From Stramenopiles sp. TOSAG23-2 (taxonomy: Eukaryota): 33,970 nt of DNA. This document shows positions 1 to 32,273 of the stretch, in pieces; the first letter of the stretch is position 1, and each line of letters starts with the position of its first letter. The stretch spans positions 1 to 33,970 of the forward strand of contig LT649355.1 of assembly GCA_900128395.1 (NCBI GenBank). Direction: 5' to 3'. Made by a program: the position numbers and the translations under genes. The notes under the pieces were generated by a model that had not been told where the DNA came from, made no database searches, and saw only the letters and a list, made by a program, of their open reading frames with translations.

Positions 1-444
1 GAAAGTACATAGCCATACCACTGATAAAAAAAAAAGGCCGTCGTTTCAAAAGGTACTTTTTGGCAAACTCAATTTTGCACCTCCGACGTTCGTTGTGTAC
101 CTGCTATTTCTCCCATGCTATGTACCTGGAAAATAATGGAAGATTTTCTTATACTTTTCCCCATACTGTGCTGTTATAGAAAATTAATAACACTAATTAT
201 AATTAAAAAATGCATCTTAAAAAATGTAAAAATGGTGTTTTTAGGGCATTTTCCTTAAACAAAATGTCGTTATTGTGCGGTGTGTAATAATTTTTTACAA
301 CTTATATGTAATTAGTACTAGAATAATGTTATAGTCTCAATAATTTCAATAATATATCAAACATTTTCTATTTTTCTATTAATTATAGATGTAGATGTAT
401 TAATGTAGGATGTAATTCTATTTGTAAATACAAAATTAAATAGG

Positions 445-2312: not shown

Positions 2313-5300
2313 TTACAACGCTGTATTTATCTTTGATTTATCATTCTTCTTCACCATTTCAAAAAATATACCATTCTCATTTTCTAATAATACATTTGGA
2401 GTGTCAAATTCTACAATTTTGCCTTCTTCCATCACAATAATACGGTCACTATCCATTATGGTATCTAATCGATGTGCAATTGTCAATACAGTTGTATCTT
2501 TGAATCTTTCACGAATCACTTTTTGAATCATTGCATCTGTCTTTCCATCAACGCTTGATGTTGCTTCGTCTATGAGCAAAACTTTGCATGATCGAACTAA
2601 TGCTCTACATATAACTAATAATTGTCGTTCACCATGACTTAACTCTGAGCCATCTTCTCCAACATAAAAATTTAATCCATCATCACCAGTTTTGTCAAAT
2701 CTGGACTTTAAATTTACCTCCTCCAGAGCTTTCCATAAAATTTCATCGTCAATGCCATCATGATTTGGATCTAAATTTTCTCTTACTGTCCCTGCAAACA
2801 CAACAGGTTCTTGTGGAATAATTGATATTATTTCGCTACGCAACTTTTTTAATGAAATATTTTTACAATTTATCCCACCAATGATAATCTCTCCCTCTTG
2901 GACTATGTAACGTTATGACAAGATTGATGATTGTTAGAGAAACAAAGAGATTTTTTTGCATGCATTTTAGGCAATGATAAAGCTTTTTACTTACGGGATT
3001 CAAACAAATGTAGCATTGCACGCATTATGGAACTTTTTCCACTTCCAGTTCGTCCAACAATACCAATGGTTTCACCATCATTTATTTTTGCATTTATTTC
3101 TTTTAATATAATAGGAAGATTTTCACGATAACGAAGTGATAAATTAACGATTTCAATAGAACCTGTATTAGGTATTGCTGATACACCTTGTTCAGGATTG
3201 CCATCAGCCGTTTTACCATTTTTCTTCAGTCGTATCATCTCTTCATCATCAATAGTTAATAATTCTTGGACACGTTCCACTGAAGTCAATTCATTCTCTA
3301 ATTGTACTAATGCCATAACAGTCCATGATGTCATGCCCATTAATTGTAGAGAATAAACAAAAGCTAATGATAATAGATTGGTATCTAATACACGCCTTAA
3401 TGAGGTTCCAAGTATAGTCAATAGCAATATAAAGATAGATGCTATTGTGTTGACATTTATAGAAGACCAACGCGTCAATATTTTGTCCATTAAAAAAAAC
3501 CTAGCTTGTGAATCACATTTAGATTGTGCATCTTTGACAAAATAGTCTACGACTCCGTATGCTCGTATAGCTTCCTTACTTTGTAAAGCTTGATCAAATG
3601 CCACATTTATTGGCGAACGTGAGACTGCATCCATTCGTTGCATTTCTCTGCCAGATCCTCGATAAAGCATGAATATAAATCTATATACTACTATCACAGG
3701 CAAAATTACTAAAAACACATATACACAACTAACACCGGCAAGTACATAGCAACTCAGCAATGTGAAGACATTATCAAGCATTTGATAAAGTATATTTGGT
3801 AGCATTGTGTCACTTTTTTGCATATCCGCAGACAATCTATTCAATACTCTACCGACAGGATTTTGTTGAAAATATAACAATGGCGCATTAAACAAACAGT
3901 TTATAGCACTCTCGTGCAAGTTTTTCGAGGATCGAATCGCTAAATAGACACCAAAAAACGCTCTTGTCAATGCTATACAAACATTTAATCCAACAAGTAT
4001 TGCAGCATCCTGGATGAATGATGATTGTGTTTTACTCCTTGTTGTCACAGTAGTAACATTATTGCCGTTCAAAACGATTTGTTTGTTGCTAAGTGGCGCC
4101 ACACTCCACCTAGTAAATATAACATCAATATAAACACGTACAGTTTGCCCTCCAATATATAAAGCGAAAATTAGCAGGCAAATTGCCCAACCCAAAGTAC
4201 TACCACCAACAGCCATATCAAAATGTTTTTTACAGACTTGTCTCTTCACTGCTCCTTTTTGACGAGTTTCTTCTACTACAATGTCGTTTCTATTTTCTTT
4301 CTTTTTCAAATGAAGTTCCTTCGCCGATTTTATATCACTATCCTCGATTACTGCATTATCATCATGTAACTGTATTGTATTTGTTGCAACTATTAAACTG
4401 CTATTGTTATTTTTAGCAACGTTAGTAGCATCACTGTTATCATTATTTACCGTGTTACACACTTCATCAAACGTTCCTACCTTTTCTAGCTCCCCATTTT
4501 GTGAAAGAACAATTATCATATCTGTGTGCTCCAATAATTGAACGTGTGAACTAACTATCAAAATTCTTGTAAACCCTTTTAAATGATTTAATAATCCCTT
4601 ATTAAACATTTTATATGCTACATCAACATCTACAGCACTAAGTGGGTCATCAAATATAGCTACATTATTACCATTATCAACATCATTCTTGTGATTATAT
4701 TTGCTGTGGTACAAACATCTAGCAAATGCAACTCGTGCTCTTTGACCACCAGAAAGATTTACACCATGTTCACCTATTTCCGTTAAATCATTATCGACTA
4801 ATAATCGAATGTCTTCACTCAAGCATGAAGCATCAATGCATTCAAAATACAACGATTGGTTCATTGTTAATCCAAATAATATATTTGAACGTAAAGTTGA
4901 ATTGAAAATGAAAGGTTTTTGACCAACATACGATGTATGCATGTTGGATGATTTTTTAATTGCAGAATTTGGATAACATTTTAATTCTCCAAGGAGACCT
5001 TTGATTAAACAGGTTTTCCCAGCACCAACACCACCAACAATTCCAACGAATGCACCTTTTTTTATTTGAAAAGATAAATTTTTAATCGTATATTTTAGAT
5101 TTTTGTGATTACTACTAGAAAGTTCATGGAACGAAAAGCTAGCATTTTTTAAATCAAAAATTGCTTGTTCATTATTCTCATTACTTTGCTTCGATATATC
5201 CATTTCTTCCTTTTTCAACCCACCATCCTTTTCCTTCTCAATATCTTTTAACAAAAAGCAATTTGGACTTTCTGGTAAATTTAAAAACGCATTGATCCGA

Positions 5301-6421
5301 CTCAAAGAAACCCTGGCTTGAAAAAAATTGCTAGCAGCCATTGGAATAATCAACAAGGGAAATCTAACTATATTGATATAAGCAAGTGTTTCAATGCATT
5401 GTGGCAATCCTAATTCACCACCAAACCATATGATGCTTGAAAATGTAAACAAAGCAACGATGGATGGAAAACAAAAGTTAACACAACGTAAAAACGCTTC
5501 TAAATATAAAATTGTTTGTGTTTCTTTTAATTCTAAATTACGTGCCACCCGCATCCGTTGTTTAAAGGAATCTTCCATTCGCGCACTTTTCAATAATTGT
5601 ATACCAAACAAAGCTGATTGTAATATTTTTGTTCGACGATCCGTATATGTCATCATAATTCTGCGATGTCTACCAATATGAGCAGAAACAAATGCATTTA
5701 ATGGCAAAAGCAACAGTAGCAAACCAAAACCTACCAATGCTGCATATCCAATGGAAATGTACATACTATATAAACAATATAGAACAAATAACACAGCAAG
5801 ATACAAATAATGAAAAAAATTCAAACATAAATAGAATTTATCAGCATCGTTACTAACTAAGTTTGCAAGCGTCCCAAGTGCATTGCCGGAACACGTATGT
5901 AATCGTAATGCCTTTTGGTGCAGTAAATTAACAGTCAATTGCCTGACCGATACGCCGATACGAGCTAAAACATGGAATTTCCAATTAATAGTATAGGCAT
6001 ACATAATACCACAACCACATAGAGAAAATGCTAATAAAATTCCTGTTGTATCCACAGAATTAGGATCTTTCAAAAATTCCACCACTTTTCTTAACAGTTG
6101 CGGTTGCAATCCTGCAGCTACGCACCAGCCAAAATAAAAACATTGAGCTAAAATCCAGGGAGGATAATATAGGCGAAACAAATAATGAAACAAATTAATC
6201 CTTTTTCCCTTCTTTTTGTGTTTCTTGTATAATATATCAAAATTTTTCAAAACAGTTGCTGATGTTGTATCATGCGGGATGAGAAAAGTATCATCAAAAG
6301 AAACAGTGCGTGATAGATTTTTGTACAACCATCCATATAAAAAACAATAAAACAACTCGTTGACTCTGTATCCTTTGCCTAATTGTGGTGGTGGTCCTTT
6401 CACTCTGTTGTCACTAGACAT
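2313..6421 (-). CDS. ABC transporter C family (MRP-like, TMD1-NBD1-TMD2-NBD2, no TMD0); exons 6421-2995 and 2902-2313, about 1338 aa
   Basis: NBD1 GGVGAGKT / LSGGQRAR / IFDDPLSAVD; NBD2 GRTGSGKSS, IIPQEP, LSHGERQL, LIDEATSSVD, TIAHRL. Removing the intron joins LHLFES-LQEGEIIIGGINCKNISLKKLRSEIISIIPQEP in frame. Confidence 0.93.
2903..2994 (-). other. Spliceosomal intron (92 nt, phase 1) in the ABCC gene
   Basis: GTAAGT donor at 2994, CTAAC branch (2937-2933), TAG acceptor ending 2903; splicing restores a continuous NBD2. Confidence 0.92.
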
Positions 6422-7185
6422 AATCTTTGTAGTTTTGTTATATGTCGTCTAATGGTATTATCTTTAACATACAGTATGTAGTCGTAGTCGTAGTCGTAGT
6501 AGTGTTACCTATTCAACTATTGTAGTTAAATTTATTATAATGAATAATAAAACTTATCGTAATTATATTTAATCTATTATAATAAAAGCCTTGGAACTTG
6601 TATGTATTTTTGCATTTTATTATTATATTTTTAAATATGGCCATGAAATATATGGCAGCCTCCGTTTGTCCAACCTGATGGGTGCATGGCACACCTTAAC
6701 CTCTGTAAACCAAACCTGTGTTTATGTTAATGTAGGAGTACATGTGATTAACACTAACAGCATTTATAATATGAAAAACCATCCGAAATTTAAACTCCAT
6801 AAAAACACCTATTGCATTTTTTATCCAGCCGGGCCAGGAAATAGAAATAACCAAAATTTGGATCGAAAAAAAAATGAATGAGACATAATTAGCAGCAAAT
6901 ACAATGTAATTGCTACTGTGATAATATCTTATAATATTTTTTTATTACTCATTACAGAAGTAATTTACTAGTATATAGATCTACTACTATTCCTATATAT
7001 ATATATATATATATAATATATTATACATTATTATATTCGCACACCACACACTAAATAATAAGTAATGCAAAAGAATTTATAAAGAAAATTATATAAATAA
7101 TTGATATACTTTATTCAATAAGGAAGTCAATTCTCTTTATTTTCGTCTTATTAATCGTTCAATATTTGTGTAAGTTTATGCAAAA

Positions 7186-10100
7186 ATGGCAACTAATGGC
7201 TGGCGTACAATTAAAGTAAATAGCGAACAAGCTGAGAGATATCCAACAAATGAAGTTATTAGTTCAAAATATACGTGGTACAACTTTATTTTTAAAGCAC
7301 TGTTTGAACAATTTCAACGTGCGGCAAATTGCTACTTCTTATTGATATGCTTCTTACAAACGTGGACGCTTGTGAGTATTACAGGTGGTGTCCCAACACA
7401 AGCACCTGTTTTATTTTTCATTTTAACGCTTTCACTTTGTAAAGTTGGTTATGAAGATTACCTGCGTCATAAAGCAGATGCAGAGGAGAACGGCCAAAAA
7501 GTAGATCAATTTAATCCAGAGACAAAACAATTCGAAAACGTTACATTTACAGAATGCAAAGTTGGATCTATATTAAAGATAAAAAACCGGGACCAAGTTC
7601 CGTCAGATTGTTGCTTGATTGCTTCTTCCGATACGGCAACAAATGCAGTCTTTGTAAACACAAAGGCGTTAGATGGCGAGACTGATTTGAAAATTCGCGA
7701 AGTTCACACTGATTTAGTGTTACCAAAAAATCTGGCAAATTTAAATCCAGAAGCACTTGCTGGAAAGATTGCGCAAGATGACTTGAAAGCAGAGGCACCG
7801 AGTAAAAATTTGCTGAAATTTGAAGGCACCTATTGTAAAAACGAAGAAAATGTTAGTCTTGATCGAAGTAATATCATTTTACGTGGTGTACAACTTCGTC
7901 AAGTTGAATGGTGTCTTGCCGTTGTACTATACACGGGTAAAGATACAAAAATTCAAATGAATTCCATTCGACCACCACAAAAAACTAGCACAATGGGTGG
8001 ATGGACAAGCCGCGATACTGGAAGAATGTTCGTGATTGACATATGCATGTGCTTAGCATCAGCAACAATTGGTTCAATTATGCGTAGCAATACGGCTTCG
8101 AATTATTTTGCGATCGGGCAAGATACAAAGGATTCATCAAATCGTATATATATGACGTCCATGGATAATGCTTCATATGGTGAGGTAGATCGTGGAGGTA
8201 TATCAGGTGGTTTTATTGAATGGGTGTTGAATTTTTTCCAATACTTTTTAATTTTCACGACTTTCATTCCAATATCGTTGCTTGTAACAATAGATTTTGT
8301 GAAGTTCTTTCAAAAATTCATTATCCAAGCAGATTTAGATATGTATTACGATGTAACTGATACGCCAATGCGCGTTCGTAGCTCCGAGTTGAACGAATCA
8401 TTAGGTATGGTCAGCCACGTATTTTCTGATAAAACTGGAACGCTAACATGTAACGTAATGGAATTTCGCAAAGCGTCGATAAACGGCATAAGCTATGGAA
8501 AAGGTTTAACACAAATTGGCGTAGGAAGATTCCAACGAGAAAATCCAGGAAAACCTATTCCAAAAGATCCTGTGGTTGATGGGCCGAAGACAGATTTTGT
8601 GAATTTCTTAGATGTTGGCCATACACTACAAAAGAAAATGGACAAAGGCAATTCTGAAGATGCACAATTGGCAAAGAAATTTTGTTTGAATTTGGCATTG
8701 AATCATGAAGTCATCCCAGAAGAAGTTGATGGAAGCGACGAATTGATATATTCAGGTCCATCGCCAGATGAAGTTGCATTTGTTTATTTCGCAAAACATA
8801 TGGGATATTATTACAACAAACGTACGCGTAGAACAGCAACAGTGAAAATTAATGGTAAAAATGAGGAATATGATATTTTAGAAGTGCTTAAATTTAGCAG
8901 TGCTAGAAAGCGCAGTTCCGTTCTTTGCAGAAAAACAGGAACATCAGGCAATATTACTGTATTTTGCAAAGGCGCAGATAACGTGATGAAACCATTATTA
9001 GACAAAAATTGCTCTCGTACAAGAAAAATGATGAAAGATACTCTAACCCATATACAGAATTATAGTGATGATGGATTAAGAATTTTGATGATTGCTGAGA
9101 AAACGGTTAGTGAAAAATGGTACGGCGCATGGCGAGCACGTATGGATAATGCAAAAAATGCAATGGAAAATCGCGAGGAAAAAGTGGAAGCTGTCATGGC
9201 AGAAATCGAGGGAGACTTGACTTTATGTGGTGTCACTGCAATTGAGGATAAATTGCAAGATGGTGTACCCAAATGCATTGCAAGTCTTCGTAAAGCTGGA
9301 ATTAAGGTATGGATGTTAACTGGCGACAAAGTGGATACTGCTATCAATATTGGCTATGCATGCCAATTAATTGCTCCAGACATGCGTGTATTGGAGCTTA
9401 CAGCAAAGGCCAGTAAGAAAGCACAGTTAGATCTGGACAAAGATGGTATTCCAACTCAAGTATGTTTGGAAACTGAAATGAGAAAAGCATTGGTTAGTGC
9501 AAGAGATGCAGTAGGAAAGAACCAAGAAGTTGTTGCAGTTTTGGATACTTATTTTTTAACTGCTATTGAGAAATACGAAGATTTTCCACATTTGCTTGAG
9601 TTATCACAAATGTGCAAATCTTTCATTGCTGCACGTGTCAGCCCAGATCAAAAAGGACAAATCGTCATGATGATACGAGACAATTCTTCTCCAGATATTG
9701 TTACATTAGCGATTGGAGATGGGGCGAACGATGTCAACATGATACAAAAAGCCCATGTAGGAGTTGGAATCGAAGGTCTTGAAGGAAAGCAAGCAGTAAA
9801 CAACAGTGACTTTGCTATTGCACAATTTCGATTCTTGCAAAAACTATTACTATGCCATGGAAGATGGTGTTACAGAAGAATGGCCACAGTTTCATATTAT
9901 ATGTTTTACAAAAATGCTTTCTTTGTATTCGCAAATTGGTTCACCGGTTTCTGGCAAAACTTTTCAGGACAAAACTATTACCTTGAATACCCATTATACC
10001 AAGGACACAATATGTTTTGGACAGCATTGCCAATTATTATATTTGGCGTGTTTGATAAAGATTTAGTGAAAGACGTTTGCATGCGTGTACCCGAAGTGTA

Positions 10101-10806
10101 TCAGGACGGAATTAAAGGGGTATATTTCAGCAATAAAATATTTGCACAATGGATCTTCGAAGCATTAGTAACTGGTATTATTTGCTCTTGCATGGGCCTT
10201 ATAACCGTGGAATACAGCAGCATTGGGAGGTTTGGCGTTGGTTTGTATTACATTGGTACCATCATTCATCTCTGCATGTCTGTGGTAACAAATGTACGTT
10301 TAATGCTAATTGTAAGAGATTGGACGTGGGTAGTCGTTCTCATATTTACGGGATCGATCGCATCATGGTTTCTTATAATGATTTGGCTGTCTGAAAGTTT
10401 CATCCAAACAATGCAGAATTTTTTCTCAATGAATACAGTAGGTATGCTTGAACAGTTGGTGAAAGACGAGTATTGGTGGTTTACCTTGCTTTTAGCAAAT
10501 GTATTATGCATTATGCCATTCTTTGCACAGAAAGCTTACATGTCATTCTATAGACCGCGAACTTCGCAACTAATGCAAGAATATCAATATAAACATGCAA
10601 CTCGACTTGGTTTAGATAAACGCCCTGTATTTTGTTGTTGTGGCAAGCAAGAGGGAGATCCAAGAGAAGTGGAAATTGAAGTAAAGGAAATTGAATTAAA
10701 AGATATGTTTGAAGGAGAAAAAGATCAAGAATATGAAAAGCGTATATTAAATATAAATTCAGAATCTACAGGATCATTGTCCAGCGAGAATCCTCTCAAC
10801 GTATAA
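7186..10806 (+). CDS. P4-type ATPase (phospholipid flippase)
   Basis: SSKYT, LDGETD actuator motif, PISL in TM4, DKTGTLT phosphorylation site, SPDE, KGAD, WMLTGDK, GDGAND, HGRWCY; multiple hydrophobic segments. Confidence 0.96.
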   Translation: MATNGWRTIKVNSEQAERYPTNEVISSKYTWYNFIFKALFEQFQRAANCYFLLICFLQTWTLVSITGGVPTQAPVLFFILTLSLCKVGYEDYLRHKADAEENGQKVDQFNPETKQFENVTFTECKVGSILKIKNRDQVPSDCCLIASSDTATNAVFVNTKALDGETDLKIREVHTDLVLPKNLANLNPEALAGKIAQDDLKAEAPSKNLLKFEGTYCKNEENVSLDRSNIILRGVQLRQVEWCLAVVLYTGKDTKIQMNSIRPPQKTSTMGGWTSRDTGRMFVIDICMCLASATIGSIMRSNTASNYFAIGQDTKDSSNRIYMTSMDNASYGEVDRGGISGGFIEWVLNFFQYFLIFTTFIPISLLVTIDFVKFFQKFIIQADLDMYYDVTDTPMRVRSSELNESLGMVSHVFSDKTGTLTCNVMEFRKASINGISYGKGLTQIGVGRFQRENPGKPIPKDPVVDGPKTDFVNFLDVGHTLQKKMDKGNSEDAQLAKKFCLNLALNHEVIPEEVDGSDELIYSGPSPDEVAFVYFAKHMGYYYNKRTRRTATVKINGKNEEYDILEVLKFSSARKRSSVLCRKTGTSGNITVFCKGADNVMKPLLDKNCSRTRKMMKDTLTHIQNYSDDGLRILMIAEKTVSEKWYGAWRARMDNAKNAMENREEKVEAVMAEIEGDLTLCGVTAIEDKLQDGVPKCIASLRKAGIKVWMLTGDKVDTAINIGYACQLIAPDMRVLELTAKASKKAQLDLDKDGIPTQVCLETEMRKALVSARDAVGKNQEVVAVLDTYFLTAIEKYEDFPHLLELSQMCKSFIAARVSPDQKGQIVMMIRDNSSPDIVTLAIGDGANDVNMIQKAHVGVGIEGLEGKQAVNNSDFAIAQFRFLQKLLLCHGRWCYRRMATVSYYMFYKNAFFVFANWFTGFWQNFSGQNYYLEYPLYQGHNMFWTALPIIIFGVFDKDLVKDVCMRVPEVYQDGIKGVYFSNKIFAQWIFEALVTGIICSCMGLITVEYSSIGRFGVGLYYIGTIIHLCMSVVTNVRLMLIVRDWTWVVVLIFTGSIASWFLIMIWLSESFIQTMQNFFSMNTVGMLEQLVKDEYWWFTLLLANVLCIMPFFAQKAYMSFYRPRTSQLMQEYQYKHATRLGLDKRPVFCCCGKQEGDPREVEIEVKEIELKDMFEGEKDQEYEKRILNINSESTGSLSSENPLNV

Positions 10807-11248
10807 AAATCTATTGTGATAATAAAACGATAATGAGTGTGTGTTATAAATTATAATTATATCGAATACGAAGTAGTATTTTAATTTGAAGTTGTATAGT
10901 CTTATTATTTAGTATACTTATTTTAATTATGCCTATTTTATATACTGGTATATGGTACAGTATATAGTATTCTTTATATAATGGTATAATTCTAGAATAA
11001 TTAGAATACATGAGTAGAGCTATAATACCTGGTACAGTACGAGGATAACGAACGTGCGAACGTGGCCAATTGTGCAATTAATTTTTAAATAATAAAATTG
11101 GTTTACATATTTATTCTATTTATTAACATATAAATACACAAAACGTATTTGGTAATTCATATGCGTGTTTGTTTGATAATTTATAAATAGACACAGAACA
11201 AACGCACATATATATACTTAAGCCCAGAGGCATCCACACTGTATCCAT

Positions 11249-14200
11249 ATGTATCAAGTAATATTTAATGTAAATAATAATAATAAATTATATAGGAGCA
11301 AGACATTTATTACAATATTAATAGCAACTTTATTACTTTCTATCACAAATACTTGTTTAGTCCGTGGTGACAGTGTAAGTAATAATAATAACAACAATAA
11401 TGTCAACAATGAAGAACAAATATTACCTATGGCAAAATCCTATTTTTTCAGTGAAAGGTTCAACAATGAACCAAGTGATGCTGATTTCGTGGAAGATCCG
11501 TCACATCAAATATGGTACATCGAGGGGAATAAAAGAAGACTAGTTGGAAGTTACCAATTGTTATTGGATTTATTGAAACAGGAAAAAAAGATTGAAAGTG
11601 ATGTGTTACAAGTCCGGAAAGACATTTTGTCTACAACAACAGTAGCAGGTGCCAATATGTACATAAACAGCAATGAAGATAAGAAAATAAAGCCGACATT
11701 TGCAATGAACCAAACCATACCATTTCATCCAAATTTTTCAATACAATATTCAAATCCTTTTAATTATGGATATGACTCCACCATGTTTTTTCAAATTTGG
11801 TTCTTTGAACCTCCGACAAATGGGCATCAAGCAATTTTTCATTCTCTTCCATCCGTATCAGAGACTTTATCTGTAGTGCTTTTTGCTATGCCAGGAAGTG
11901 TACCATCAAAATATGGAAATGGGAAGAAAATTTCCCTTTTTTTAGGTGTTTGTCATAGTAAAGTCTCAACAGCAAATGGAATTGGTAGCACTACCAGTAA
12001 TATTGAAATGAAAGGTACGCCTTTTTCTAATGCAGTAGATGCTCAACAGTGGAACCATGTATCAATAACGTTTACTCACGGAGCATTGACTCTATATGTC
12101 AATGGTAAACCTGGTGCTAGTTTCAATGTTAGTAAGTTTGGTTTATCCGGAGTAGCTGGTGGCGCGAAGGGAAAAATTTCTAGTAAACAACGTGCAATAA
12201 GCTTTGGACGATTTGAAAATCAAAATGGATTTTCTGGCTTAATTTCCAAAGGGAAGGCAGTGTTTGGGTGGAAAGGTGATCAGCATGATATAAATGATCA
12301 TATGAAGCAAACGCACATGAAGCCAATACCAAGATGGTTGTGCGATTTAGTTAAAATACAAGGAATAAAGAATACAGAAGTGTTCGAAAAAGCAAGGAAA
12401 GCATTAATTGCTGAAAATATAAAGAGTAATGCGAACGAAAATGATCAGAATGTGGTAACCGAAAGTAATAGTGCTGATACTGTAGATAATCTTGATTCAT
12501 TCAACATCAAAAATCGCGATTCATTATTTGATTTTGGGAGAGCATTTGCGTCCTTGACATCGATCGGTCATGTTAATGACGATTGGAGAAGTAATACAAT
12601 TAAAAAATATGTAAAAATTTTACATCTTCAAAAAGAACAAAGCCAGCAAGAGTATGCAAAGTGGTTTGAAACACCCCCAAAGAAAAAAATATCAGAATCA
12701 TTTAAAACGCAGGTATGTATTGAGAAAAAAACTGGCTGGTGGAACTACAATTATTGTTATCTTTCGACGACGACGCAAATACATGAGTCAAATGGCAATA
12801 ATGATAAGAAAATTGTATACAACTTGGGTCATTATTACTCAGCAGATAAGCCTATCATCCAAATAGATCCTTCTGATTTGCATATCGCTTGTAAAGAGGA
12901 GAGAAAGTTAGGCTGTCCTAATTTATTGTTTGAAGACACTGTGCTGATGATAGATTGCTTGTACTCTAAAATAAAAGAGGTATATATGCAAGGTCGTTGC
13001 AAATCGTTGGTTAGTAGATTAAAGAAGGAACCATTGATGATTTCGCACTCTCATAAAAATGGAGATAAATGCGACAATAGCAAAAGTCGAATGAGTGACA
13101 TAAAATTTGAGTGCTGTCCTGAACGTAGCGATCATAAACTTTCCCCAACTATCAGGAACGTTGTCGAACCTTCAGATTGTAATTACGTATGGACGATTTG
13201 CATTCCTCTGCTATGTAAACCAATTTTTTTTCACAATTATGAAAATGTTGTTGACGATAGTAGTAGTATTCATGCAAAAATGCCATTACAAGTACCGCCG
13301 AAATCATCTGGTTTTGATAATCAGAATCGGGATACAGGCAATACGAACATTTTTTTAAAGAGTATTGTTACAGCATCAAGCGCGTGGAACTCGCTACAGA
13401 TGGGTAAAAAGGCGATCGATGGAAAATTAAAAACCGAATGGAAGTCGCAATTAGATGATACAAATCCGACAATTGAATTTGAATTAAAAGAACCATGTAT
13501 AAATGGTGTAAAGCAAATTGAAATATTTTGGAGTTTAGCACCTGCAGCCTTTACTATTTATACATCAAAAGATGGGTTGAAGTTTGATGAAGTGACTAGT
13601 ATGGCAACCCAACCCGAGATGGGCCGTGTTGATGTTTTAGAAGGCTGGGCTTTGCCTAATGAATATTCTGTCACCAATATAAGAATTATAATCAGTGATA
13701 TTGGAACATATACTGCAAATTCGATAAAAGAAATAGTCGGTATATGTAAAAATTCCAAGATCAATATATCTCCTAAGGTACTCGCTGATAAAGCAAATAG
13801 TGAGAATATTGATAGTCGAATGAGACTAGAAAATACTGAAATAAGACATGGAAATGGATTGATGGAGGTGGAAGCAGCTTTAGAACGACTAGAAGATGGA
13901 GAAAGGGATTTCGATCTTGCCCATACAATTTGGATGCTTCAATTTATTACTAAACCAAAACGAAATATCAAGGCTCCAAACAACCGACACGATGAATCCT
14001 TTAAGAAATCATTACATGCATTAGCATACAATGTCTTAAAAGGCAATCAATGGCCATCTAATCGATTTCAGCACACTGACATTAACAATGGAAACAGTAA
14101 TAAGAACGAGGGAAATAATATACCCCAAGAGCAAAGCAGTTCACTTCATATCGTTGACGAGATAAATCACAACAAGCCATCATTTTACTTGGAACAATAT

Positions 14201-15808
14201 GATGTAGAACTTGCCGCACAATTATATCATGAAACAGCTTTAATAGTTATTGGTCCGGATCATGCGATGAAACAGCCAAAACCTGCTGAAAAAATATATT
14301 TGTCAAAGGCAACGAAGGAGCAACTAAAACAACATGCTGGGGAAGATGGTGATGTTGCAGTATATCAAAAAGATAAAGCAGAAGCTGGTGATAGGCATGC
14401 ACGGATGTGGATGGCAAGCCGATATTACCATGGTTTAAACGGGTTCGAATTAGATCGCGAACGGGCAGCTAATATTTTTCGTGAGGTTGCTGATGGCGGT
14501 GATGCGGAAGCAGCATATAATTTTGGAGTAATGCGATTAAATGGCCAAGATGGGCAACCACCGGATAGAAATGAAGCAAATAGATATTTCAATATGGCAA
14601 CGGCACATTCATTTTCCCCAGCATTGAATGGAATAGGTGCTCAACATATGCAAAAGGCTGAATATGAGAAGGCATTTAGTTATTTCTTGAAGGCGGCTGA
14701 GGAAATGTCACCAGATGGACATTTTAATCTTGGCACCATGTATCGTGATGGGCGTGGCGTACCTAAAGATCTTCGAAAAGCGTTGATGCATTTTGCAATT
14801 GCTGCTACGTTAGGACAACCCCGTGGAATGTGGGTGCTTGGCAAAGGCTACTTTTATCGCCAAAGTTGGCTAAATAAAATATCCATATCTGATTTTCATG
14901 AAAATGAAGAAGTAGTTGAAATTTATGGAAAGAAAAAGAAAAAAAATGTAATAATTACAGCAACAATAAAAAAGAATGAAATTATCTTGTTGGTAAACCA
15001 ACGCAAGCCATACTTGGTGCAGAATGTTACATTTCCCATTATGCGAGATGTAAAAATTGCATTAAAATATTTCAGAACTTTATCTGAACTTGGGTCTAGC
15101 ACTGCATCTAATGTTTCTTCCTTAGCATTAAAAGCATGGCTTGATGGACACCATGAAGAAGCCTCACTTTTGTATGCGGAGGCGGCTTCAATGGGTATAG
15201 TCGATGCATTATCAAATATTGCATGGATACAGAGATCCAAACAAAATACATTGACTGATATCGAAAGTCAAGACAGTTTTTCATTGAATGGCAAATGGAG
15301 CCAAGAACGAATAGCACACTTTTATACAGCAGCAGCAGCAGCAGAAGCTTCTGTAGAGGATCTATTGATTTTAGGAAAAGCGTATGAAGATGTAAAAATG
15401 AAAAGAGAGATTGTTCCAAAAATTTATGAGTTTGCTTCTCAACATGGTAGCCAGGAGGCAATGTTTAGATTAGGTGTTGCAGAATTAGAAAATTCAAATA
15501 TGACAAGTGCAATAATACACGTAAGTTAATTTTAGTATATATATGCCACACCAAAACCCTTTGCATTTAATTGTCTATTAGTCACCACACTCTAACATTT
15601 TTAATATATTTTTCATTCAATTCTCCACCGTTTTATGCATATGTAGTTTGATAAATGCATTGAAAAAGATGGTGTTGGTTCTATACCTTGTAGAATTTTT
15701 CGATATGGTGTATGGTGTTACCAGAATATTTACACTTCATACGATTTCTACCGTACGAAGGGCATTGAAGGGATAGCTTCTTTCCTTCTTGTAGGGTATG
15801 ATTTATAA
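11249..15808 (+). CDS. Multidomain SEL1L/Hrd3-family protein with signal peptide, LamG-like, OS-9-type MRH (with Cys-rich insert), F5/8-C discoidin and SEL1 repeats; exons 11249-15520 and 15647-15808, about 1477 aa
   Basis: Hydrophobic N-terminal leader; WNHVSITF..LTLYVNG (LamG); GWWNYNYC..Q, GDKCD..R..FEC, EPSDCNY...LLC (MRH); TASS..KAIDG...TEW.S (discoidin); repeated A..G...A.YN.G..Y..G (SEL1). Confidence 0.85.
15521..15646 (+). other. Spliceosomal intron (126 nt, phase 0) near the 3' end of the SEL1-repeat gene
   Basis: GTAAGT at 15521, CTAAC at 15592-15596, TAG at 15644-15646; downstream exon is open for 53 codons (FDKCIEKDGVGSIPC...GYDL stop) and completes the last SEL1-like repeat. Confidence 0.85.
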
Positions 15809-15928
15809 AATATTGACCCCGCGTTAAAATAATGATAATACGTTCATACCGTATAAAATGTACGAAAATGACAGTGGTATTTTTTTTCAATATTTTTTTA
15901 TTATATATAAAAGCTCTGCGCTGTGTTA

Positions 15929-16261
15929 TCAGTTTAATTTATATTTATCTAAATAGGTACGAAAATATTCTTTTCTAAGTTTCTCCTCTTTTTCTGCATC
16001 TTGTTTTTCCCAACTGGCAACTTTTAACACATTGTAACCATACCTTGAATCCCATAATAATTCCACATGTGTGTAATAATCTTTCACGCTTAAATAATGA
16101 ACGTTTCTAAGATATGGCCTCATACAACACAGAAAGACTCTAGCTTTTGCGTTATTTCGAAAATAATTAAACAACAAAAGATAAACAGCCATCTGCGGAT
16201 TTGCCCTTCCCTTTAAGATGGCAATGTCATATTTTGTAAAATTTCCACCAAATTTTTGCAA
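15929..16261 (-). CDS. Hypothetical short ORF or gene fragment (first ATG at 16192; the frame extends upstream across two TAA codons)
   Basis: 110-codon open frame with protein-like composition; no recognisable family. Confidence 0.3.
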   Translation of the reverse strand: MQKFGGNFTKYDIAILKGRANPQMAVYLLLFNYFRNNAKARVFLCCMRPYLRNVHYLSVKDYYTHVELLWDSRYGYNVLKVASWEKQDAEKEEKLRKEYFRTYLDKYKLN

Positions 16262-16769: not shown

Positions 16770-17318
16770 TTAAGGCGAAGCTTTTGCTGTTTTAGCATCA
16801 ATCTCCAAATCCATTTTTTCATCAACAATAGGTGTATGTAATGCTTTTGCTATGTCAAACCATTGAAAAGCTTTTGGTATATGGTCCGTATCTGTTGGTT
16901 CTATATCATGGTTCCAGTAGAAAAAATGATCAAAAACCTCATCTGTTACTGCAAAATTATTTGATTGTGCTTGTTGAAATCCTAAGTTAGCTCCACTACC
17001 AGACTGTTGGCGTAATATTATCCCGGTTACATTTTCTGGCAATTTCATTTTCTTACCTGCTAAACGCCTTCCACGAAATGACGCTTCATACGTACTATTT
17101 TCATCATCCTCCTTGACTTGTTGTGGAATAAAATATTCGCTTACTCGCGCGTGCCCGTCATAATGTATTTTACAAGGTAATAAATGAATATTTTTTTTGT
17201 TCGTAAATGTAGTATTTGCATGTTGATCAATATTATTATTGTTGTCGTTGTCATTCGTCTCTACTACCGTTGGTAGTGCTTTTTTGATATCTGCAGCTAA
17301 TATATGATCCGTCGACAT
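16770..17318 (-). CDS. RNASEH2C: Ribonuclease H2 subunit C
   Basis: IHLLPCKIHYDG..VSEYF, ASFRGRRL.G...LP...GIIL, F.YWNHD..P, W..IAKALH motifs. Confidence 0.92.
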   Translation of the reverse strand: MSTDHILAADIKKALPTVVETNDNDNNNNIDQHANTTFTNKKNIHLLPCKIHYDGHARVSEYFIPQQVKEDDENSTYEASFRGRRLAGKKMKLPENVTGIILRQQSGSGANLGFQQAQSNNFAVTDEVFDHFFYWNHDIEPTDTDHIPKAFQWFDIAKALHTPIVDEKMDLEIDAKTAKASP

Positions 17319-17560
17319 GATGATAATGGTTGTTGTTTATTTTTTGTGTTGTTTTATTTTGTTACTACTATTGTTTTCTTTCCTTTATCTTCAAATATAT
17401 ATATTTTAAAATATATTTATATTAAGTATAATATATATCTATTAGCTTACTTCAATTGCAATACATACTAGACTATACAAGTTAGTAACTTGTATAATAA
17501 TATAATATGAAATTATTAAAATACTAAATTCAAATTTCAATAATCACCGTGACCTCGTAT

Positions 17561-18069: not shown

Positions 18070-18535
18070 AAGCACATACCACATACCGACGATATTAAAT
18101 AAGTTTTATATTAATAGGTATAATAATGTACTGGTACACTACGCACCTACAAAATTCTGAGAGGAAAAGATACTATAATACTAGCATTATTCCAATTATC
18201 GGGAAAATGAATGAGAGTGATGATTAGCGCGATAGACTATGTGCATATGCCATACAGAAGAAGAATATAAAAATGTATAATTTTGAAATAATTTTGAACA
18301 CCAAAAAATAATAATAATAATTCTAGAATAATACTGATGTAATAAAAATAATAATTGCACAATTCAAAACAAGTTTATACTGTTTTAAAAAACATATAAA
18401 ATATTATTCTAAAGTCGAGACGATAGACACAATATATATTACATAACATATATATATATATATATAGCATAGCATAGCATAGTATATATTACTTATTATT
18501 TATTGTCGGAATCTTGTTTTAGTATATGAAAAACA

Positions 18536-20476
18536 ATGGAAGTAAGTGAATCTGGTATTAGTAATGCATATTTTGATAAAGTATCAAATTATTCATTATC
18601 ACGTTTACGTGAGGAACCAAGGAAAATAAATGAAGAATTGGGAAAATTAAAAATTGAAACTGAGGAAATGTCTGTACAAAATTATACCGCGCATATTGAC
18701 AATCATAGGTGCTTAACTGCTGGGATTAAAGGATTGAAAAGTATGGATAAAGATTTAAATGGATTTTCTGAAAATATAAGTGGAGTGAAAGAAGAAGGTA
18801 CGAAATTTTTAAATAATGCTGCACATTTAGTTGATAGGCATAAAGAGTTTCAATCAACTATGCAACAATATAATCAAATTTTACAATTGTTAGAAATACC
18901 ACAATTGCTCGATGCATGCATCAAACGACAAGCTTTTGAAGACGCACTTCGTTTAGCCGGGTTTGTAGAGAAATTGACCAAACGACATGGCGTTTTATAC
19001 GCTTCTGCCAATTCAGGTAATGAAAATGAAGGGCGTAACAAAGTGAAAAAGAAAAAAAATGGATTTGATTTAATTTTGAATATATGCAAGGATGTCAAAG
19101 AAATGATTGAATCGTTAAGAAGCGACTTAATTCATACATTAGGTGGTTCATTAACGCTACCTTTATGTGTACGTACTGTAGGTTATCTCCGTCGCGTCAT
19201 TGCATTGCTACATAAATTTAATAATATATCTCCATTGGACAATAATAATAATATTAATAATAAGAAGAAGAAGAAGAAGCAACGACGAAGCAAATATTCA
19301 TTTGAATCTGTACAATTAGAGAAAATATTTTTGACATCTCGTTCGAATTATTTAAGTGCTGAACTAGCAAAAATTAAGCAAGGGCAGCCAAGTGAATATA
19401 TTGTAAAATCAATTGAAAAGCGCCGTGTGATATTATGCGAAATTATGAGTCAATATAATGCAATATTTGTTGATGACAATAATAGCAATAACAACAAGTC
19501 GATAATTAGAAGTAACAGAGATGGTGAAGAAGAATCTAAAAAGAATGACTCTTCGACAATATCAAATGAACAACGTTTAATGGATTGGATTGTCCAGCAA
19601 GTAAATAAGACTTTAGCCATGTTGAGAAAATTTGTTGTTATGATTGATGATGGAGTTGCATTGTCAAATGTAATAGAGCAAGCCACATATATGGCTAAAA
19701 GTTTAGGGAAATTTGGTGCTGATTTCAGATCATTGCTAGTTCCAATTTTTCATAAACGTGTAATGAAATTGGCATCTGATTTCTGGGAAGATGCTATTTT
19801 ACAATTTCAAAAAAATATTAAAAATGTAGAATGGTTGAAAATTGATCTTAAATCTATTTTAAAAAGTGAAAAACAAAAATTTTTGGAAAAACACGAAAAC
19901 GACAATAATAACGAAGGAAAAGATAAGGACAGTAAAAATGTACGAGCACCACCACCTATTTTGCTCCAATTCCCATCTCTCGGACACTTTACAAATGCTA
20001 TAATTGGTTCCTTTAATGAATTACGTCATATTGCATTTTTATCTTTACGTGACAATTTAGCATCTCTATTTATAAATAAAATTAGTGAATTAATAGGTAT
20101 TGTCAAAGAATTAGATCCAGTAAAAGATACGCGAACGAAGAAAAAAATTTTAAAACGTTATCAACTGTATTGTAATTATGGTTTAAATGCATGTGTAGCG
20201 CATTTATTGATTTTATTTCAAAGTATTTACGGCGAAACAGATGCACGATTTAATAAATGGTATAAATTAAAAGCAAAGGAAATAAATAATAAGATGAAAT
20301 TTAATGATGGCAATCCACCATCATCAAATATGAATGCAAATAATAAAAGCAATGATAAAAAGGTTCAATCTACTGGTGTGAACGATGGAGAGAAAATTAA
20401 CAATGTTAATGATGCTGCTGTAGTATCTAACATCGATGGGAAAGATAGAGAAGATGAAGATGGAGATTTGATATGA
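18536..20476 (+). CDS. COG8: Conserved oligomeric Golgi complex subunit 8 (Dor1 family)
   Basis: LLEIPQLLDACI, L.LP.CVRTVGYLRR, SLGKFGADFR, PP..LLQFP.L..F.N....FNELR motifs. Confidence 0.92.
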   Translation: MEVSESGISNAYFDKVSNYSLSRLREEPRKINEELGKLKIETEEMSVQNYTAHIDNHRCLTAGIKGLKSMDKDLNGFSENISGVKEEGTKFLNNAAHLVDRHKEFQSTMQQYNQILQLLEIPQLLDACIKRQAFEDALRLAGFVEKLTKRHGVLYASANSGNENEGRNKVKKKKNGFDLILNICKDVKEMIESLRSDLIHTLGGSLTLPLCVRTVGYLRRVIALLHKFNNISPLDNNNNINNKKKKKKQRRSKYSFESVQLEKIFLTSRSNYLSAELAKIKQGQPSEYIVKSIEKRRVILCEIMSQYNAIFVDDNNSNNNKSIIRSNRDGEEESKKNDSSTISNEQRLMDWIVQQVNKTLAMLRKFVVMIDDGVALSNVIEQATYMAKSLGKFGADFRSLLVPIFHKRVMKLASDFWEDAILQFQKNIKNVEWLKIDLKSILKSEKQKFLEKHENDNNNEGKDKDSKNVRAPPPILLQFPSLGHFTNAIIGSFNELRHIAFLSLRDNLASLFINKISELIGIVKELDPVKDTRTKKKILKRYQLYCNYGLNACVAHLLILFQSIYGETDARFNKWYKLKAKEINNKMKFNDGNPPSSNMNANNKSNDKKVQSTGVNDGEKINNVNDAAVVSNIDGKDREDEDGDLI

Positions 20477-21960: not shown

Positions 21961-22149
21961 AGGCCACAACATGAATAATCACAAATACTATTATATAATA
22001 AATATATATTTTATTAACAACAGTAAATGCACAAACATATCTAATAATAACAAGATGAACAGGAAGAACAAGTAGAAAGATATATATATTATACCCACAT
22101 ATTATATAAACAATATAGTCTTAAAAATTACAACATCAATAGTAACAAT

Positions 22150-23064
22150 ATGGCATCGTTATCATCAAATGGAGGACCAACTCAACGCCGTAGAAGAAGA
22201 AAGGCAAAAGGTACGAAAAGTGTCTTGGCAAAATTAGAAGAAAGTTTAAAAGATGGTGATTTTTATAGTGCACTGCAAATGTATAAAACTTTATTAAGTC
22301 GTACCTCGCCGAAAGAAGTAAAAAATGCAAGGCATATTGCTGAGGAAGGTACCATTAAATTGTTGGAATTTGGATATAGCAAGGCTGCAACAGAACTTGG
22401 AAAACAATTTATTACAGATTATTTAATTGAATTTAAAATACTTGTCGATGAAGATGTCATACAAACAATATGTAATATTGCTAATAAATATCCCGCAAAA
22501 GATATTGATGCACAACAAGATAAATTATTATTTCTAAATGAAGCAATTGATTGGACAAAAAAACATGACAAATCGAATCCAAGGGGTACACCAACGTTGC
22601 ATTTAGTAACTGCTACAACTTATTTTTCATTAGGCGATTTCAACAATGCATCAACGCATTTTTTATTTTCTTCATCGCCAAAACAACATGCAAAGTTTCT
22701 ACTTTTTCTTGGAAAACGTGGTTTTAAAGGTGAACGGGACTTATTCATTTTAAGAGTTGTTTTACAATTTCTTGCCTTGGAAAATATTAAAGATGCATCT
22801 CAAACATTTAATGCTTGGAAAGAAGATGCGGTTGGGATTGAAACTCCTGCGACACATTTGTGTGATTTTTTAATACGTGCCTCACAACGTGGTCAAAGTG
22901 CAGCGCCATTATTTGCGTTATTAGAACAAAGATATCAACCAACGTTAAAACGTGACGATGCCTTCAGTCATTATATGTCTATGATTGGCCATAAATTATT
23001 TGGTAGACCAAAGCCGCAAATGGGAGGGATGATGGGAATGCTTAGTCAAATGTTAGGATTTTAA
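22150..23064 (+). CDS. GET4: Golgi to ER traffic protein 4 (GET4/TRC35)
   Basis: G.FYSALQMYKT..SR, FL..AI.W......GTP.LH, A..HF, ERDLFILRVVLQFL, L..RY.PTL.RD..F..Y...IG...FG and Gly/Met-rich tail. Confidence 0.92.
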   Translation: MASLSSNGGPTQRRRRRKAKGTKSVLAKLEESLKDGDFYSALQMYKTLLSRTSPKEVKNARHIAEEGTIKLLEFGYSKAATELGKQFITDYLIEFKILVDEDVIQTICNIANKYPAKDIDAQQDKLLFLNEAIDWTKKHDKSNPRGTPTLHLVTATTYFSLGDFNNASTHFLFSSSPKQHAKFLLFLGKRGFKGERDLFILRVVLQFLALENIKDASQTFNAWKEDAVGIETPATHLCDFLIRASQRGQSAAPLFALLEQRYQPTLKRDDAFSHYMSMIGHKLFGRPKPQMGGMMGMLSQMLGF

Positions 23065-24536: not shown

Positions 24537-24808
24537 CATCTGGACATAAGTTAGTAGTACCAGGTAATAGCATAAGCAGTGTACTATTCCTATCTTTAAA
24601 TCTCTCTTCTTTTCTATCTAAATATAATACGCACTTCTTCTTCAATTGGCAGACTTATATACATACTATTAGCTAAAAAAATAATAATTAATTGCTTTTA
24701 CTATATACGTTACAATGTATATTACAAACTAGAAAAGTCGAAATATACACAATGTATGTCTAGGTCATCCATAACAACAACAGATAAGATTGACAAGCCA
24801 ACAATAAT

Positions 24809-26905
24809 ATGATCAAGCGACGTAGGCGTGCTGGATCCGCACCAAAATATAGAAACCAAGAGTCACCACGAACTAGAAGTATAAGTGATACAGAAACAAA
24901 TGAAAGGTTACGGGAAGAACAAGAATCACTAGAAAGAAAACCATCATTAAAAAAATTGAAAACAAAAATTATAAAAAGTAAAAACAACTTTATGGAACGA
25001 AAACGTAAAATAAGTCAAAATGTCGATCGAAAAATAAACAAGATGAAAACAAAAATGAAAGAAAAAGTATATAATATGACAAAAAAGCTGCCAAATCGTA
25101 AACGTCTTTCAGGTAGTGATAAGCATTTATCTATCTATAATAATAATAATAATAATAGCAGGAGATCTGACGGTGAGGATAATAACATGGCATATGGCCG
25201 AGATCGTGGTAGTGGAAGTCTCAGTGGCAGAGATGCACGAAGTGATGGTGATGTTGCCGATGTAGAATTTTATGAAAATGTATTTTCTGATGAGGATGGA
25301 AACAATAATAATATGTATCATGATAATAATAATAATGCCTATCGTACTAGTAAATTTAGAGGAAAAGGACGTAATAATCATAAAGGTAGTAAAAAAATGT
25401 TAGAACGCTGGAAATCATGGAGAAAGAAACAAAGGCAAAAGGAGAAAAAAAACGATTTACAAGATTTTTTAGCACAAGATGGTAGCAATATGTTTGTCAG
25501 TCAATTGCAAAAATTAAATCGAAGATTTGATCAAAAAAAAATTAGTGTAAAATGGCCAAAATTTAAATTATCATCATCATCTCGAACAAAATTACAAAGA
25601 AGAAATACTGCGGAAGAACTGGGATTGGATAATTTAGCTCCAGAACTCCGCGTATTAGTCCTCGCAGAAACATGGGATGGATTATCAAAAGATAGACGAA
25701 GGCGTTTGTTACGCGTAAAGCCATCATTTGCCATTTTGCCTCTTGAAAGATGCTTGTGCCCATTACACATTGAAGCATTGTCATGTCTTATTAGAACTAG
25801 AACTGTGTCTGAATTAATTCCTGGTTATGTAGAGTCAAAAACCGGGCAATGGTGGAAAATGCATGGAGATGAAGATACAATTCAACATAAACTTGCTAGA
25901 GCCATGATGAATAGATCGTATTTCGCATCATTGCAAAAGAAAAACTATTGTCCAGTCTGTAAAAAGAATTTAGTAGAATATAAAAATGAAGTTCTTTCCA
26001 ATAATAATGATAGCAATACAACGATGGAAGATGATAGCATTGAGGATCATGAAGATAGTAATTCAAATATGAACTCGCCACTTCGACGATCAAATACATT
26101 AGATTATGAAAATTTATCACGCATACGTCAAAGACGAACTACAGACTCTAAATTGGCTAAATATGAAAAAGATATGAAAAATAGATCATTGAAGAAAGTG
26201 CTTGCTGAGGACACATCAGAATTATGTTACCTGTTGTCTTCATGCACAAAAGCTATTATTGGTATTCGCGTCTATTCTTGCCTTACAAAGAAATATAGGA
26301 GGAAAAAACGTGATAAAAATAGAATGAGTCTATCAAGAATGAGACAAATGCCTAATGCTGCGTTTAAATCATTTAGAGCGTCGTTGAGAATGCTTGCTGA
26401 TACAGCTTCTGGCAATAATGATAGTAGGTCAAGAGCACGAAGTGAAGAGGAGGAGGAAGAAGAAGAAGAGGATGAAGGATACCCAGAGGAATATATGTGT
26501 GCTATCTGTGTAGATTTACTAGCCAAACCTTGTAAATTAGCTTGTGGGCACACATTTTGTAAAGTTTGCTTGTTAAAAGTTGCTGTAATGCAACAAGCAA
26601 AATTTATATCATGTTTATGCCCATTTTGTCGCAGGCCTTTTTTCTTCTCAGATTTAAAAGAATCAAAGGAGGTTGTCTCAATAGTGACAAAAAAATATCG
26701 CGATGCTTATGAAGGTCGTATTTTAGATACAGTCCAGGAGGAACAAGACTTATTAAGAAATATAACAAAAGACGATGAAAATGAGAATACCTCAAATGAA
26801 GTTGGTCTATATGCAGTACTTCGTCATAATATTGCTGCAATTGCTGTATTATTTTCCTCTATTCTTATTGTGTGTTTCGTGTATTATTATTACGTTTTTA
26901 CTTAA
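24809..26905 (+). CDS. C3HC4 RING finger protein with C-terminal transmembrane anchor (putative tail-anchored E3 ligase)
   Basis: CAIC..LL.KP.KL.CGHTFC..CL...CPFCR at about 26498-26629; hydrophobic tail IAAIAVLFSSILIVCFVYYYYVFT at the extreme C-terminus. Confidence 0.85.
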   Translation: MIKRRRRAGSAPKYRNQESPRTRSISDTETNERLREEQESLERKPSLKKLKTKIIKSKNNFMERKRKISQNVDRKINKMKTKMKEKVYNMTKKLPNRKRLSGSDKHLSIYNNNNNNSRRSDGEDNNMAYGRDRGSGSLSGRDARSDGDVADVEFYENVFSDEDGNNNNMYHDNNNNAYRTSKFRGKGRNNHKGSKKMLERWKSWRKKQRQKEKKNDLQDFLAQDGSNMFVSQLQKLNRRFDQKKISVKWPKFKLSSSSRTKLQRRNTAEELGLDNLAPELRVLVLAETWDGLSKDRRRRLLRVKPSFAILPLERCLCPLHIEALSCLIRTRTVSELIPGYVESKTGQWWKMHGDEDTIQHKLARAMMNRSYFASLQKKNYCPVCKKNLVEYKNEVLSNNNDSNTTMEDDSIEDHEDSNSNMNSPLRRSNTLDYENLSRIRQRRTTDSKLAKYEKDMKNRSLKKVLAEDTSELCYLLSSCTKAIIGIRVYSCLTKKYRRKKRDKNRMSLSRMRQMPNAAFKSFRASLRMLADTASGNNDSRSRARSEEEEEEEEEDEGYPEEYMCAICVDLLAKPCKLACGHTFCKVCLLKVAVMQQAKFISCLCPFCRRPFFFSDLKESKEVVSIVTKKYRDAYEGRILDTVQEEQDLLRNITKDDENENTSNEVGLYAVLRHNIAAIAVLFSSILIVCFVYYYYVFT

Positions 26906-32029: not shown

Positions 32030-32273
32030 CATCATTTCTTTTTTCTGATGTGTGGTCTGAAATTGAAGATGATAAGAGCCCACATATAGCACCATTTACA
32101 TTATTATTTTATTATATTTATATTTTATCATATAAATTCATTGCTTTCTTATAGCCACATGTAATGGGATATATATGCAATAAAGTCGTGGAAAGAGGTG
32201 TGTGATATCAACTACATGTATATTTCATAGGAAAACTTACAGTATAAATTATAAATAATATATATTATATAAC

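Follow-up and report, generated by a model that had tools for sequence, protein, structure and literature searches.

The window analyzed in this study is a stretch of 33,970 nucleotides (nt) from Stramenopiles sp. TOSAG23-2 (contig LT649355.1, positions 1 to 33,970). At 11249-15808 on its forward strand it carries a gene whose product combines, in a single chain, an MRH lectin-type domain and an array of Sel1-like repeats, together with LamG-like and discoidin domains. The gene is genuine: it is expressed and conserved, and the fusion did not arise by misassembly. By sequence comparison the MRH domain clearly belongs to the OS-9/XTP3-B/Yos9 subgroup of lectins of the endoplasmic reticulum (ER), far from the sorting receptors, and the Sel1 region finds its best single collinear match among solved structures in SEL1L. 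We propose, with roughly an even chance of being correct, that the protein is a receptor in ER glycoprotein quality control, in which an OS-9/XTP3-B/Yos9-type lectin is covalently joined to a SEL1L-like scaffold that would dock on HRD1.

The open reading frame (ORF) runs from stop to stop over 11222-15529 (+), with its first ATG at 11249. Exon 1 occupies 11249-15520 (+) and encodes all four domain types; the initial annotation of this DNA had likewise placed the domains in one continuous exon, and its domain coordinates agree with ours to within a few codons. Joined to exon 2, it gives a secretory protein of 1477 amino acids (aa), the same length as had been annotated, which consists of a signal peptide, a ConA/LamG-like jelly roll, an MRH domain, a discoidin (F5/8C) domain and about 10 Sel1-like helix pairs. 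In a hydropathy scan, the leader at aa 18-40 is the sole strongly hydrophobic segment of the product, and a hydrophobic N-terminal leader is present in the orthologues too. The features of the gene, in order along the forward strand, are as follows.

11249-11368 (+): start codon and signal peptide (aa 1-40, hydrophobic core aa 18-40), from the hydropathy scan.
11471-11653 (+): conserved alpha/beta module (aa ~75-135), from the AlphaFold2 (AF2) model; 25-31% identity to three close orthologues.
11717-12265 (+): predicted ConA-like/LamG-like beta-sandwich (aa ~157-339), from Pfam, AF2, Foldseek and Atlas.
12281-12700 (+): helical linker (aa ~345-484), partly of low complexity, from AF2 helices of low to medium confidence; 18-26% identity to close orthologues.
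12704-13228 (+): MRH domain of OS-9/XTP3-B/Yos9 type (aa 486-660), from Pfam, phmmer against PDB, the family profile and Foldseek.
12848-13039 (+): helical insert of ~64 aa between the MRH halves, with C548, C556, C570 and C584, from an alignment gap and AF2 helices.
13364-13747 (+): discoidin (F5/8 type C), CBM32-like domain (aa 706-833), from Pfam, the family profile and an AF2 beta sandwich.
13856-14056 (+): conserved helical module (aa ~870-936), from helices predicted at low confidence; 42-46% identity to close orthologues.
14276-14863 (+): Sel1-like block M (aa ~1010-1205, about five helix pairs), from Pfam Sel1 and the SEL1L alignment; the most conserved part.
14909-15037 (+): predicted four-strand beta insert (aa ~1221-1263) between the Sel1 blocks, from AF2 strands in a low-confidence region.
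15044-15520 (+): Sel1-like block C (aa ~1266-1424), which closes exon 1, from helix pairs in the model and a weak SEL1L match.
15521-15646 (+): intron of 126 nt, GT..AG, with a consensus GTAAGT donor at 15520/15521.
15647-15808 (+): exon 2 of 162 nt, 53 codons plus TAA (15806-15808), encoding the last helix pair and the tail.

Expression of the gene was followed in RNA contigs from four runs (X1, X2, X5 and X9) belonging to three studies. The spliced joint 15520>15647 is found in contigs of three of these runs (X1, X2 and X9), and the X5 contig stops at 15520 with a loose end of 17 letters that are the first letters of exon 2. A single X1 contig of 3597 nt spans 12475-15520 and 15647-16185; it takes in the MRH domain, the discoidin domain, all of the Sel1 repeats and the 3′ end beyond the stop codon, so that the lectin and repeat halves, annotated initially as one protein, lie on one RNA. 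Further RNA contigs cover 11234-11361, 11406-12126 and 12134-12689, and no cover by contigs of the four runs was seen at 11000-11176. The stretch is also present in marine and seawater metatranscriptomes, polyA-selected ones included (20 library rows from 9 studies, 17 of the 20 being recorded as RNA). Within the coding sequence, 12 of the 23 single-letter differences between strains are synonymous, compared to the 20% expected at random (binomial p = 7e-4), and the 11 replacements are mostly conservative. The frame is 4.3 kb long in DNA of 33% GC, and the orthologues are collinear with it across 94-95% of its length. One X2 contig shows an odd joint, 12642>14925, which skips 2282 nt, has CC..TT ends and leaves only 20 letters on the shorter flank; it probably arose as a chimera during assembly and does not represent an isoform. 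Apart from this joint, nothing positive speaks for an artefact, be it a chance ORF or a fusion of two or more genes through misassembly or read-through. Because of the splicing in RNA, the domain borders bridged by RNA contigs and the synonymous bias, to which the collinear orthologues can be added, we set that explanation aside as having next to no chance of being true.

The MRH domain carries the argument for a lectin of the ER. Pfam detects PRKCSH/MRH at aa 489-552 (7.6e-10, 40 bits against a cut-off of 27) and PRKCSH_1 at aa 601-663 (0.0025), while phmmer against PDB returns XTP3-B at 2.2e-10 and OS-9 at 3.4e-9. In Foldseek, the modelled domain finds its top match in the human OS-9 MRH domain as solved by crystallography (3aih_B, E 1.4e-8, TM 0.83 on the target). 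With a profile built from six family members, the ranking of solved structures is XTP3-B (1.3e-23), Yos9 (5e-14) and OS-9 (1e-13), followed by the MRH proteins CI-MPR (3.7e-5) and GNPTG (1.4e-3); the glucosidase II beta chain did not appear among the solved structures matched by this profile at E <= 0.01. Hence, the MRH domain which the initial annotation had placed at 12716-13216 is there, and the sequence comparisons put it nearest to the three SEL1L/Hrd3-associated lectins of the ER.

The double-tryptophan motif that precedes the second framework cysteine of such domains takes part in the recognition of alpha-1,6-mannose. The WW pair and the Q, R, E and Y residues that had been pointed out in the sequence all line up with human OS-9 (residue numbers read from the alignment to chain 9og0_E): W497/W498 correspond to W117/W118, Q510 to Q130, R614 to R188, E640 to E212 and Y646 to Y218. 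All six are invariant in 6 of 6 family members, as are the eight cysteines of the MRH framework. In XTP3-B, the mannose-contact residues are Q133, R207, E228 and Y234, as given in the accessible part of PMC12217079. The cysteine framework, the sugar-contact residues and the signal peptide are shared with OS-9, XTP3-B and Yos9, which also provide the best matches in both sequence and fold. In comparison to OS-9 and XTP3-B, the four close members of the family add a 64-aa helical insert with four cysteines inside the domain. The insert shows as a gap in the alignments to both lectins and as helices in the AF2 model; its four cysteines are found in the 4 close members, and the insert is absent from the 2 distant ones.

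The Sel1 region is recognized by Pfam Sel1 at 5.3e-17 (62 bits against a cut-off of 30.7). A single-sequence search of PDB places SEL1L at the top (2.3e-27), with one collinear block of 59 bits between aa 1034-1190 and SEL1L 354-514. With the family profile, SEL1L again gives the best single collinear block, covering its repeats 5-9 (71 bits against SEL1L 359-527), compared to 41 bits for the best single block of the top bacterial Sel1 protein. The next segment of SEL1L, 528-597, follows in order at 8.8 bits, which is not significant alone. Of the N, M and C clusters into which the roughly 11-12 luminal repeats of the SEL1L/Hrd3 family are grouped, the M cluster is thus the one that is clear here. 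No counterpart of SEL1L repeats 1-4 (the N cluster) was detected in the single-sequence and profile searches against solved structures, and the beta insert at aa ~1221-1263 has no counterpart in the SEL1L alignment. For aa 861-1424, Foldseek also ranks SEL1L first; this adds little because the model of this part is poor and the TM score is 0.25.

At the C-terminus, three close orthologues (P0003, P0004 and P0143) combine a signal peptide with a single membrane helix at the very end of the chain, as judged by the hydropathy scan. In the window's product, the tail encoded by exon 2 ends after eight hydrophobic residues, at the point where the membrane helix of the orthologues begins in the tail alignment. 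A third exon (GT at 15796, AG ending at 15874), which would read as a hydrophobic, helix-like segment, was considered and is rejected for the present. Both RNA contigs that cover this part (X1 and X2, from one study) run through it unspliced, and the stop at 15806-15808 was kept for that reason. It should also be noted that strains differ by small insertions and deletions around 15788-15960 (+1 after 15852, +3 after 15879, +6 or +9 after 15903 and -1 at 15921).

The modules in front of the Sel1 repeats were modelled by AF2 over aa 41-860 using 17 family sequences; the mean predicted local distance difference test (pLDDT) score is 67.8, with domain cores at 75-90. In this model, a small alpha/beta module is followed by a beta sandwich (~157-339), long helices, the MRH barrel interrupted by its insert and a second sandwich (~706-833). 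The first sandwich resembles ConA-like jelly rolls in Foldseek (E ~1e-6, probability 1.00). Pfam Laminin_G_3 scores 25.1 bits here (2.2e-5), below its cut-off of 27.6, and reaches 31.2 bits in the relative P0057, while Atlas, which is based on a protein language model, places aa 55-450 with Laminin_G_3 clusters at 0.90. On these comparisons and the model, the domain has a predicted ConA-like/LamG-like fold, and we leave its subfamily placement at the level of the fold. The second sandwich corresponds to Pfam F5_F8_type_C at aa 707-820 (1.4e-6, 28.8 bits against a cut-off of 28.2), and the six-member family profile matches solved discoidin/CBM32 domains at 1.2e-8 (4zz5_A). Neither the alpha/beta module at aa ~75-135 nor the helical module at aa ~870-936 has a Pfam match. 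The suggestion that the chain holds up to three carbohydrate-binding folds is upheld as far as the folds are concerned; sugar-contact residues were examined in the MRH domain only.

The family to which this protein belongs is small and marine, with at least six full or near-full-length members at about 23-38% identity, plus fragments. Word-indexed searches gave three collinear relatives of 1409-1472 aa, with 36-39% identity overall and 48-50% in the Sel1 region. A further word-indexed search, using the six-member alignment, added no member and also missed known ones, so that it carries no information on distribution. Identity to the close orthologues is highest in block M (60-62%); next come block C at 40-44%, the discoidin domain at 37-42%, the MRH halves at 29-47% and the LamG-like domain at 35-37%. 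Searched exhaustively by phmmer, a set of 1.84 billion representative proteins yielded 104 matches to aa 1-1046 at E <= 1e-3, 16 of them at E <= 1e-10; judged by length and range, these 16 comprise short pieces of 101-424 aa together with two distant members, P0038 (1168 aa, 26% identity) and P0040 (1228 aa, 29% identity). We inspected 13 of the 104 by Pfam or cluster look-up; they comprised fragments of the family, P0038 and P0040, MRH/OS-9-like proteins and a discoidin protein. Where a family matched, it was PRKCSH, Laminin_G_3 or F5/8C; one of the 13 lies in an OS9-named cluster and one is a Vitrella F5/8C protein.

P0038 and P0040 carry an extra module of ~130 aa at the N-terminus, ahead of the LamG-like domain, which by eye looks like a small beta-grasp-like fold. 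Both sequences stop shortly after entering the first Sel1 repeat, where an intron or the end of the gene call presumably cuts them off. A metagenome scan for Sel1 repeats past the end of P0038 gave only a 1972-nt contig covering its residues 10-392. One fragment of the family comes from an ocean sample of small size fraction, and one member is held in EukProt under a gene number.

To see what such a chain might do, it is useful to consider how the corresponding human proteins are arranged. According to the accessible part of PMC12217079, XTP3-B is held on SEL1L mainly by a domain of four strands and one helix that sits on repeats 2-3, with its MRH1 domain lying over repeats 10-12 and the trimmed N-glycan between MRH1 and repeat 12; mobility of the MRH domain is thought to be important for substrate loading. 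The known lectins OS-9, XTP3-B and Yos9 are separate, soluble proteins and, according to the same source, dock on SEL1L/Hrd3 by a further beta-domain. Unlike these, the protein studied here brings its own Sel1 scaffold along with LamG-like and discoidin domains, and no match to the beta-domain part of the OS-9, XTP3-B and Yos9 chains was seen in the structure-database comparisons. What it would share with SEL1L and Hrd3 are luminal Sel1 repeats, with the collinear order described above, and, in three orthologues, the combination of signal peptide and C-terminal membrane helix. It differs from them in the beta insert between its repeat blocks and in the ~1000 aa of lectin-type domains in front, and neither repeats 1-4 nor the fibronectin type II domain of SEL1L has a detectable counterpart in it.

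In the mechanism that we propose, the signal peptide would bring the protein into the ER. There, the MRH pocket (Q510, R614, E640 and Y646, with W497/W498) would bind N-glycans on which trimming of the C-arm has exposed an alpha-1,6-linked mannose, the degradation mark of misfolded glycoproteins. The Sel1 arch may then dock on an HRD1-type ubiquitin ligase in the manner of SEL1L/Hrd3, possibly also on the substrate polypeptide, and the substrate would so be handed over for retrotranslocation. The covalent link would stand in for the non-covalent docking of a lectin beta-domain on SEL1L repeats 2-3, and a docking interface replaced in this way would fit the finding that no N-terminal repeat cluster is detectable here. 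The LamG-like and discoidin domains may be extra binding modules, their putative ligand being glycan or unfolded polypeptide. From the sequence we infer residence in the ER, a glycan specificity, a partnership with HRD1 and a role in degradation.

Several lines of comparison point to this mechanism. The MRH domain is nearest to those lectins which work with SEL1L/Hrd3, the best single collinear match of the Sel1 region among solved structures is SEL1L repeats 5-9, and the three close orthologues have the predicted topology of SEL1L/Hrd3. Within the HRD1 complex, modules of these two types are in physical contact, and when nature fuses two such partners the result is the classic Rosetta-stone pattern.

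Other observations weigh against it. In the profile search, one bacterial Sel1 protein reaches a higher summed score than SEL1L, and the match to yeast Hrd3 is marginal (E ~3e-3). The last 253 aa of the orthologue P0003, searched against PDB, gave generic Sel1 proteins only and no SEL1L-specific match, and AF2 gave a poor model for aa 861-1424 (pLDDT 51.3). Furthermore, the hydropathy scan and the tail alignment showed no membrane helix at the C-terminus of the window's product and no K/HDEL-type end, which leaves its retention in the ER unexplained; in its missing helix it also differs from SEL1L and Hrd3. Finally, a combination of LamG, discoidin and MRH domains would also fit a multi-lectin that is secreted or displayed at the cell surface. 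Membership of the Sel1 part in the SEL1L/Hrd3 family, as opposed to a generic Sel1 array, is not established, and since the evidence for and against SEL1L is mixed we call this part SEL1L-like and keep its membership open. Accordingly, the reading of the gene as an MRH lectin fused to a SEL1L/Hrd3 scaffold is supported for the fusion and for the ER-lectin type of its MRH domain, and is not established for the family of its Sel1 part; the sequence motifs once cited for that family are present, and they are weak support for SEL1L-family specificity.

A different possibility, which we consider unlikely, is that the protein is a SEL1L3-like paralogue that modulates the HRD1 pathway while an ordinary Hrd3/SEL1L and OS-9 are kept; it would compete for HRD1, or serve a special class of clients via its own lectin domains. 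The animal SEL1L paralogue SEL1L3 is a membrane protein of the ER; it binds HRD1 via its C-terminal part and inhibits ER-associated degradation (ERAD), according to the accessible part of a 2026 paper (PMC13280011). By the description given there, SEL1L3 has a large N-terminal region devoid of Sel1 repeats followed by C-terminal ones, a layout that is shared by the present protein. For the SEL1L family, the same source describes a layout in which effector domains at the N-terminus are combined with Sel1 repeats at the C-terminus and one membrane helix. That no N-terminal Sel1 cluster was detected is in keeping with such a relationship, and so is the Atlas result for the entire protein, in which the top three clusters are all of SEL1L3, at 0.80 only. 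However, 0.80 is a level that shuffled proteins reach one third of the time, the N-terminal part alone (aa 55-450) retrieves generic LamG clusters and not SEL1L3, and nothing SEL1L3-like was seen among the 13 of 104 phmmer matches inspected. The link to SEL1L3 that had been suggested for this gene is, with Atlas at that level as its evidence, not established. The name 'SEL1L3' in PMC4746701 denotes a construct, SEL1L(348-497), and not the SEL1L3 protein.

Equally improbable, in our estimation, is a multi-lectin receptor that acts in the later secretory pathway or at the cell surface, apart from degradation, with the Sel1 repeats as a generic interaction platform; recognition of glycans on prey or particles and cargo sorting would be examples. 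Three consecutive folds of carbohydrate-binding type are typical of surface or secreted lectins, and a chain bearing neither an ER-retrieval motif nor, in this gene model, a membrane anchor would suit such a role. Sel1 repeats are moreover widespread, and summed scores to bacterial Sel1 proteins rival that of SEL1L. Nevertheless, the MRH domain is nearest specifically to the ER lectins, with its WW pair and four mannose-contact residues kept, and the best collinear match of the Sel1 region is SEL1L. For a surface or secreted lectin, finding both partner modules of the HRD1 complex in one chain would be a coincidence.

If, on the other hand, the protein does act as a quality-control receptor joined to its own scaffold, it might even be the only luminal substrate receptor of the HRD1 pathway in this uncultured marine protist lineage, where it would take the place of both Yos9/OS-9 and Hrd3/SEL1L. 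We regard this stronger form as doubtful. The LamG-like and discoidin domains would then be additional sensors of glycan state or of unfolded polypeptide, and the chain, if the proposal is true, would be a natural 'minimal' ERAD receptor, suited to structural and reconstitution work.

The remainder of the window is AT-rich eukaryotic DNA (27-39% GC in 1-kb steps) with dense, mostly intron-free housekeeping genes. Upstream of the lectin gene lie a MnmG/GidA tRNA-modification enzyme at 409-2232 (+), an ABC transporter with a frame of 1153 aa at 2987-6448 (-) and an intron-free P4-type phospholipid flippase of 1210 aa at 7174-10806 (+); from these three genes, the genome appears to be intron-poor and compact. 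Immediately downstream, a convergent open frame of 110 aa at 15929-16261 (-) has no Pfam match. Since the RNA contig of the lectin gene reaches 16185, across this frame, the 3′ ends of both transcripts may overlap. Further along are RNase H2 subunit C at 16770-17336 (-), COG8/Dor1 at 18530-20476 (+), GET4 at 22051-23064 (+) and, at 24794-26905 (+), a 703-aa protein with a C-terminal RING finger whose layout is not HRD1-like. A single frame of 1266 aa at 27545-31345 (-) is NOMO1-like (a subunit of the BOS complex of the ER) and contains numerous beta-sandwich domains of transthyretin-like and Ig-like type. At 32259-33842 (+) lies a WD40 protein that resembles Prp19.

The initial annotation knew of no description of this architecture, and our search came to the same result: no title or abstract describing it was found in the literature searched, with most subscription journals lying outside its coverage. 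New are the layout as a single chain, the insert in the MRH domain and the addition of LamG-like and discoidin domains, while the parts and their partnership are known. The partnership of OS-9/XTP3-B with SEL1L has already been solved structurally, and the fusion therefore reveals no new interaction. What it adds is evolutionary support for that partnership from an independent source, and one polypeptide for use in reconstitution. Furthermore, it indicates that the lectin can be permanently tethered, which bears on the mobility of the lectin needed in substrate hand-over. The LamG-like domain, the discoidin domain and the cysteine-rich MRH insert could each represent a new recognition element of glycoprotein quality control. 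Taken together, the family provides an example of ER machinery from uncultured marine protists, whose members have so far been annotated in their sources only as 'TPR repeat protein' or 'hypothetical protein'.

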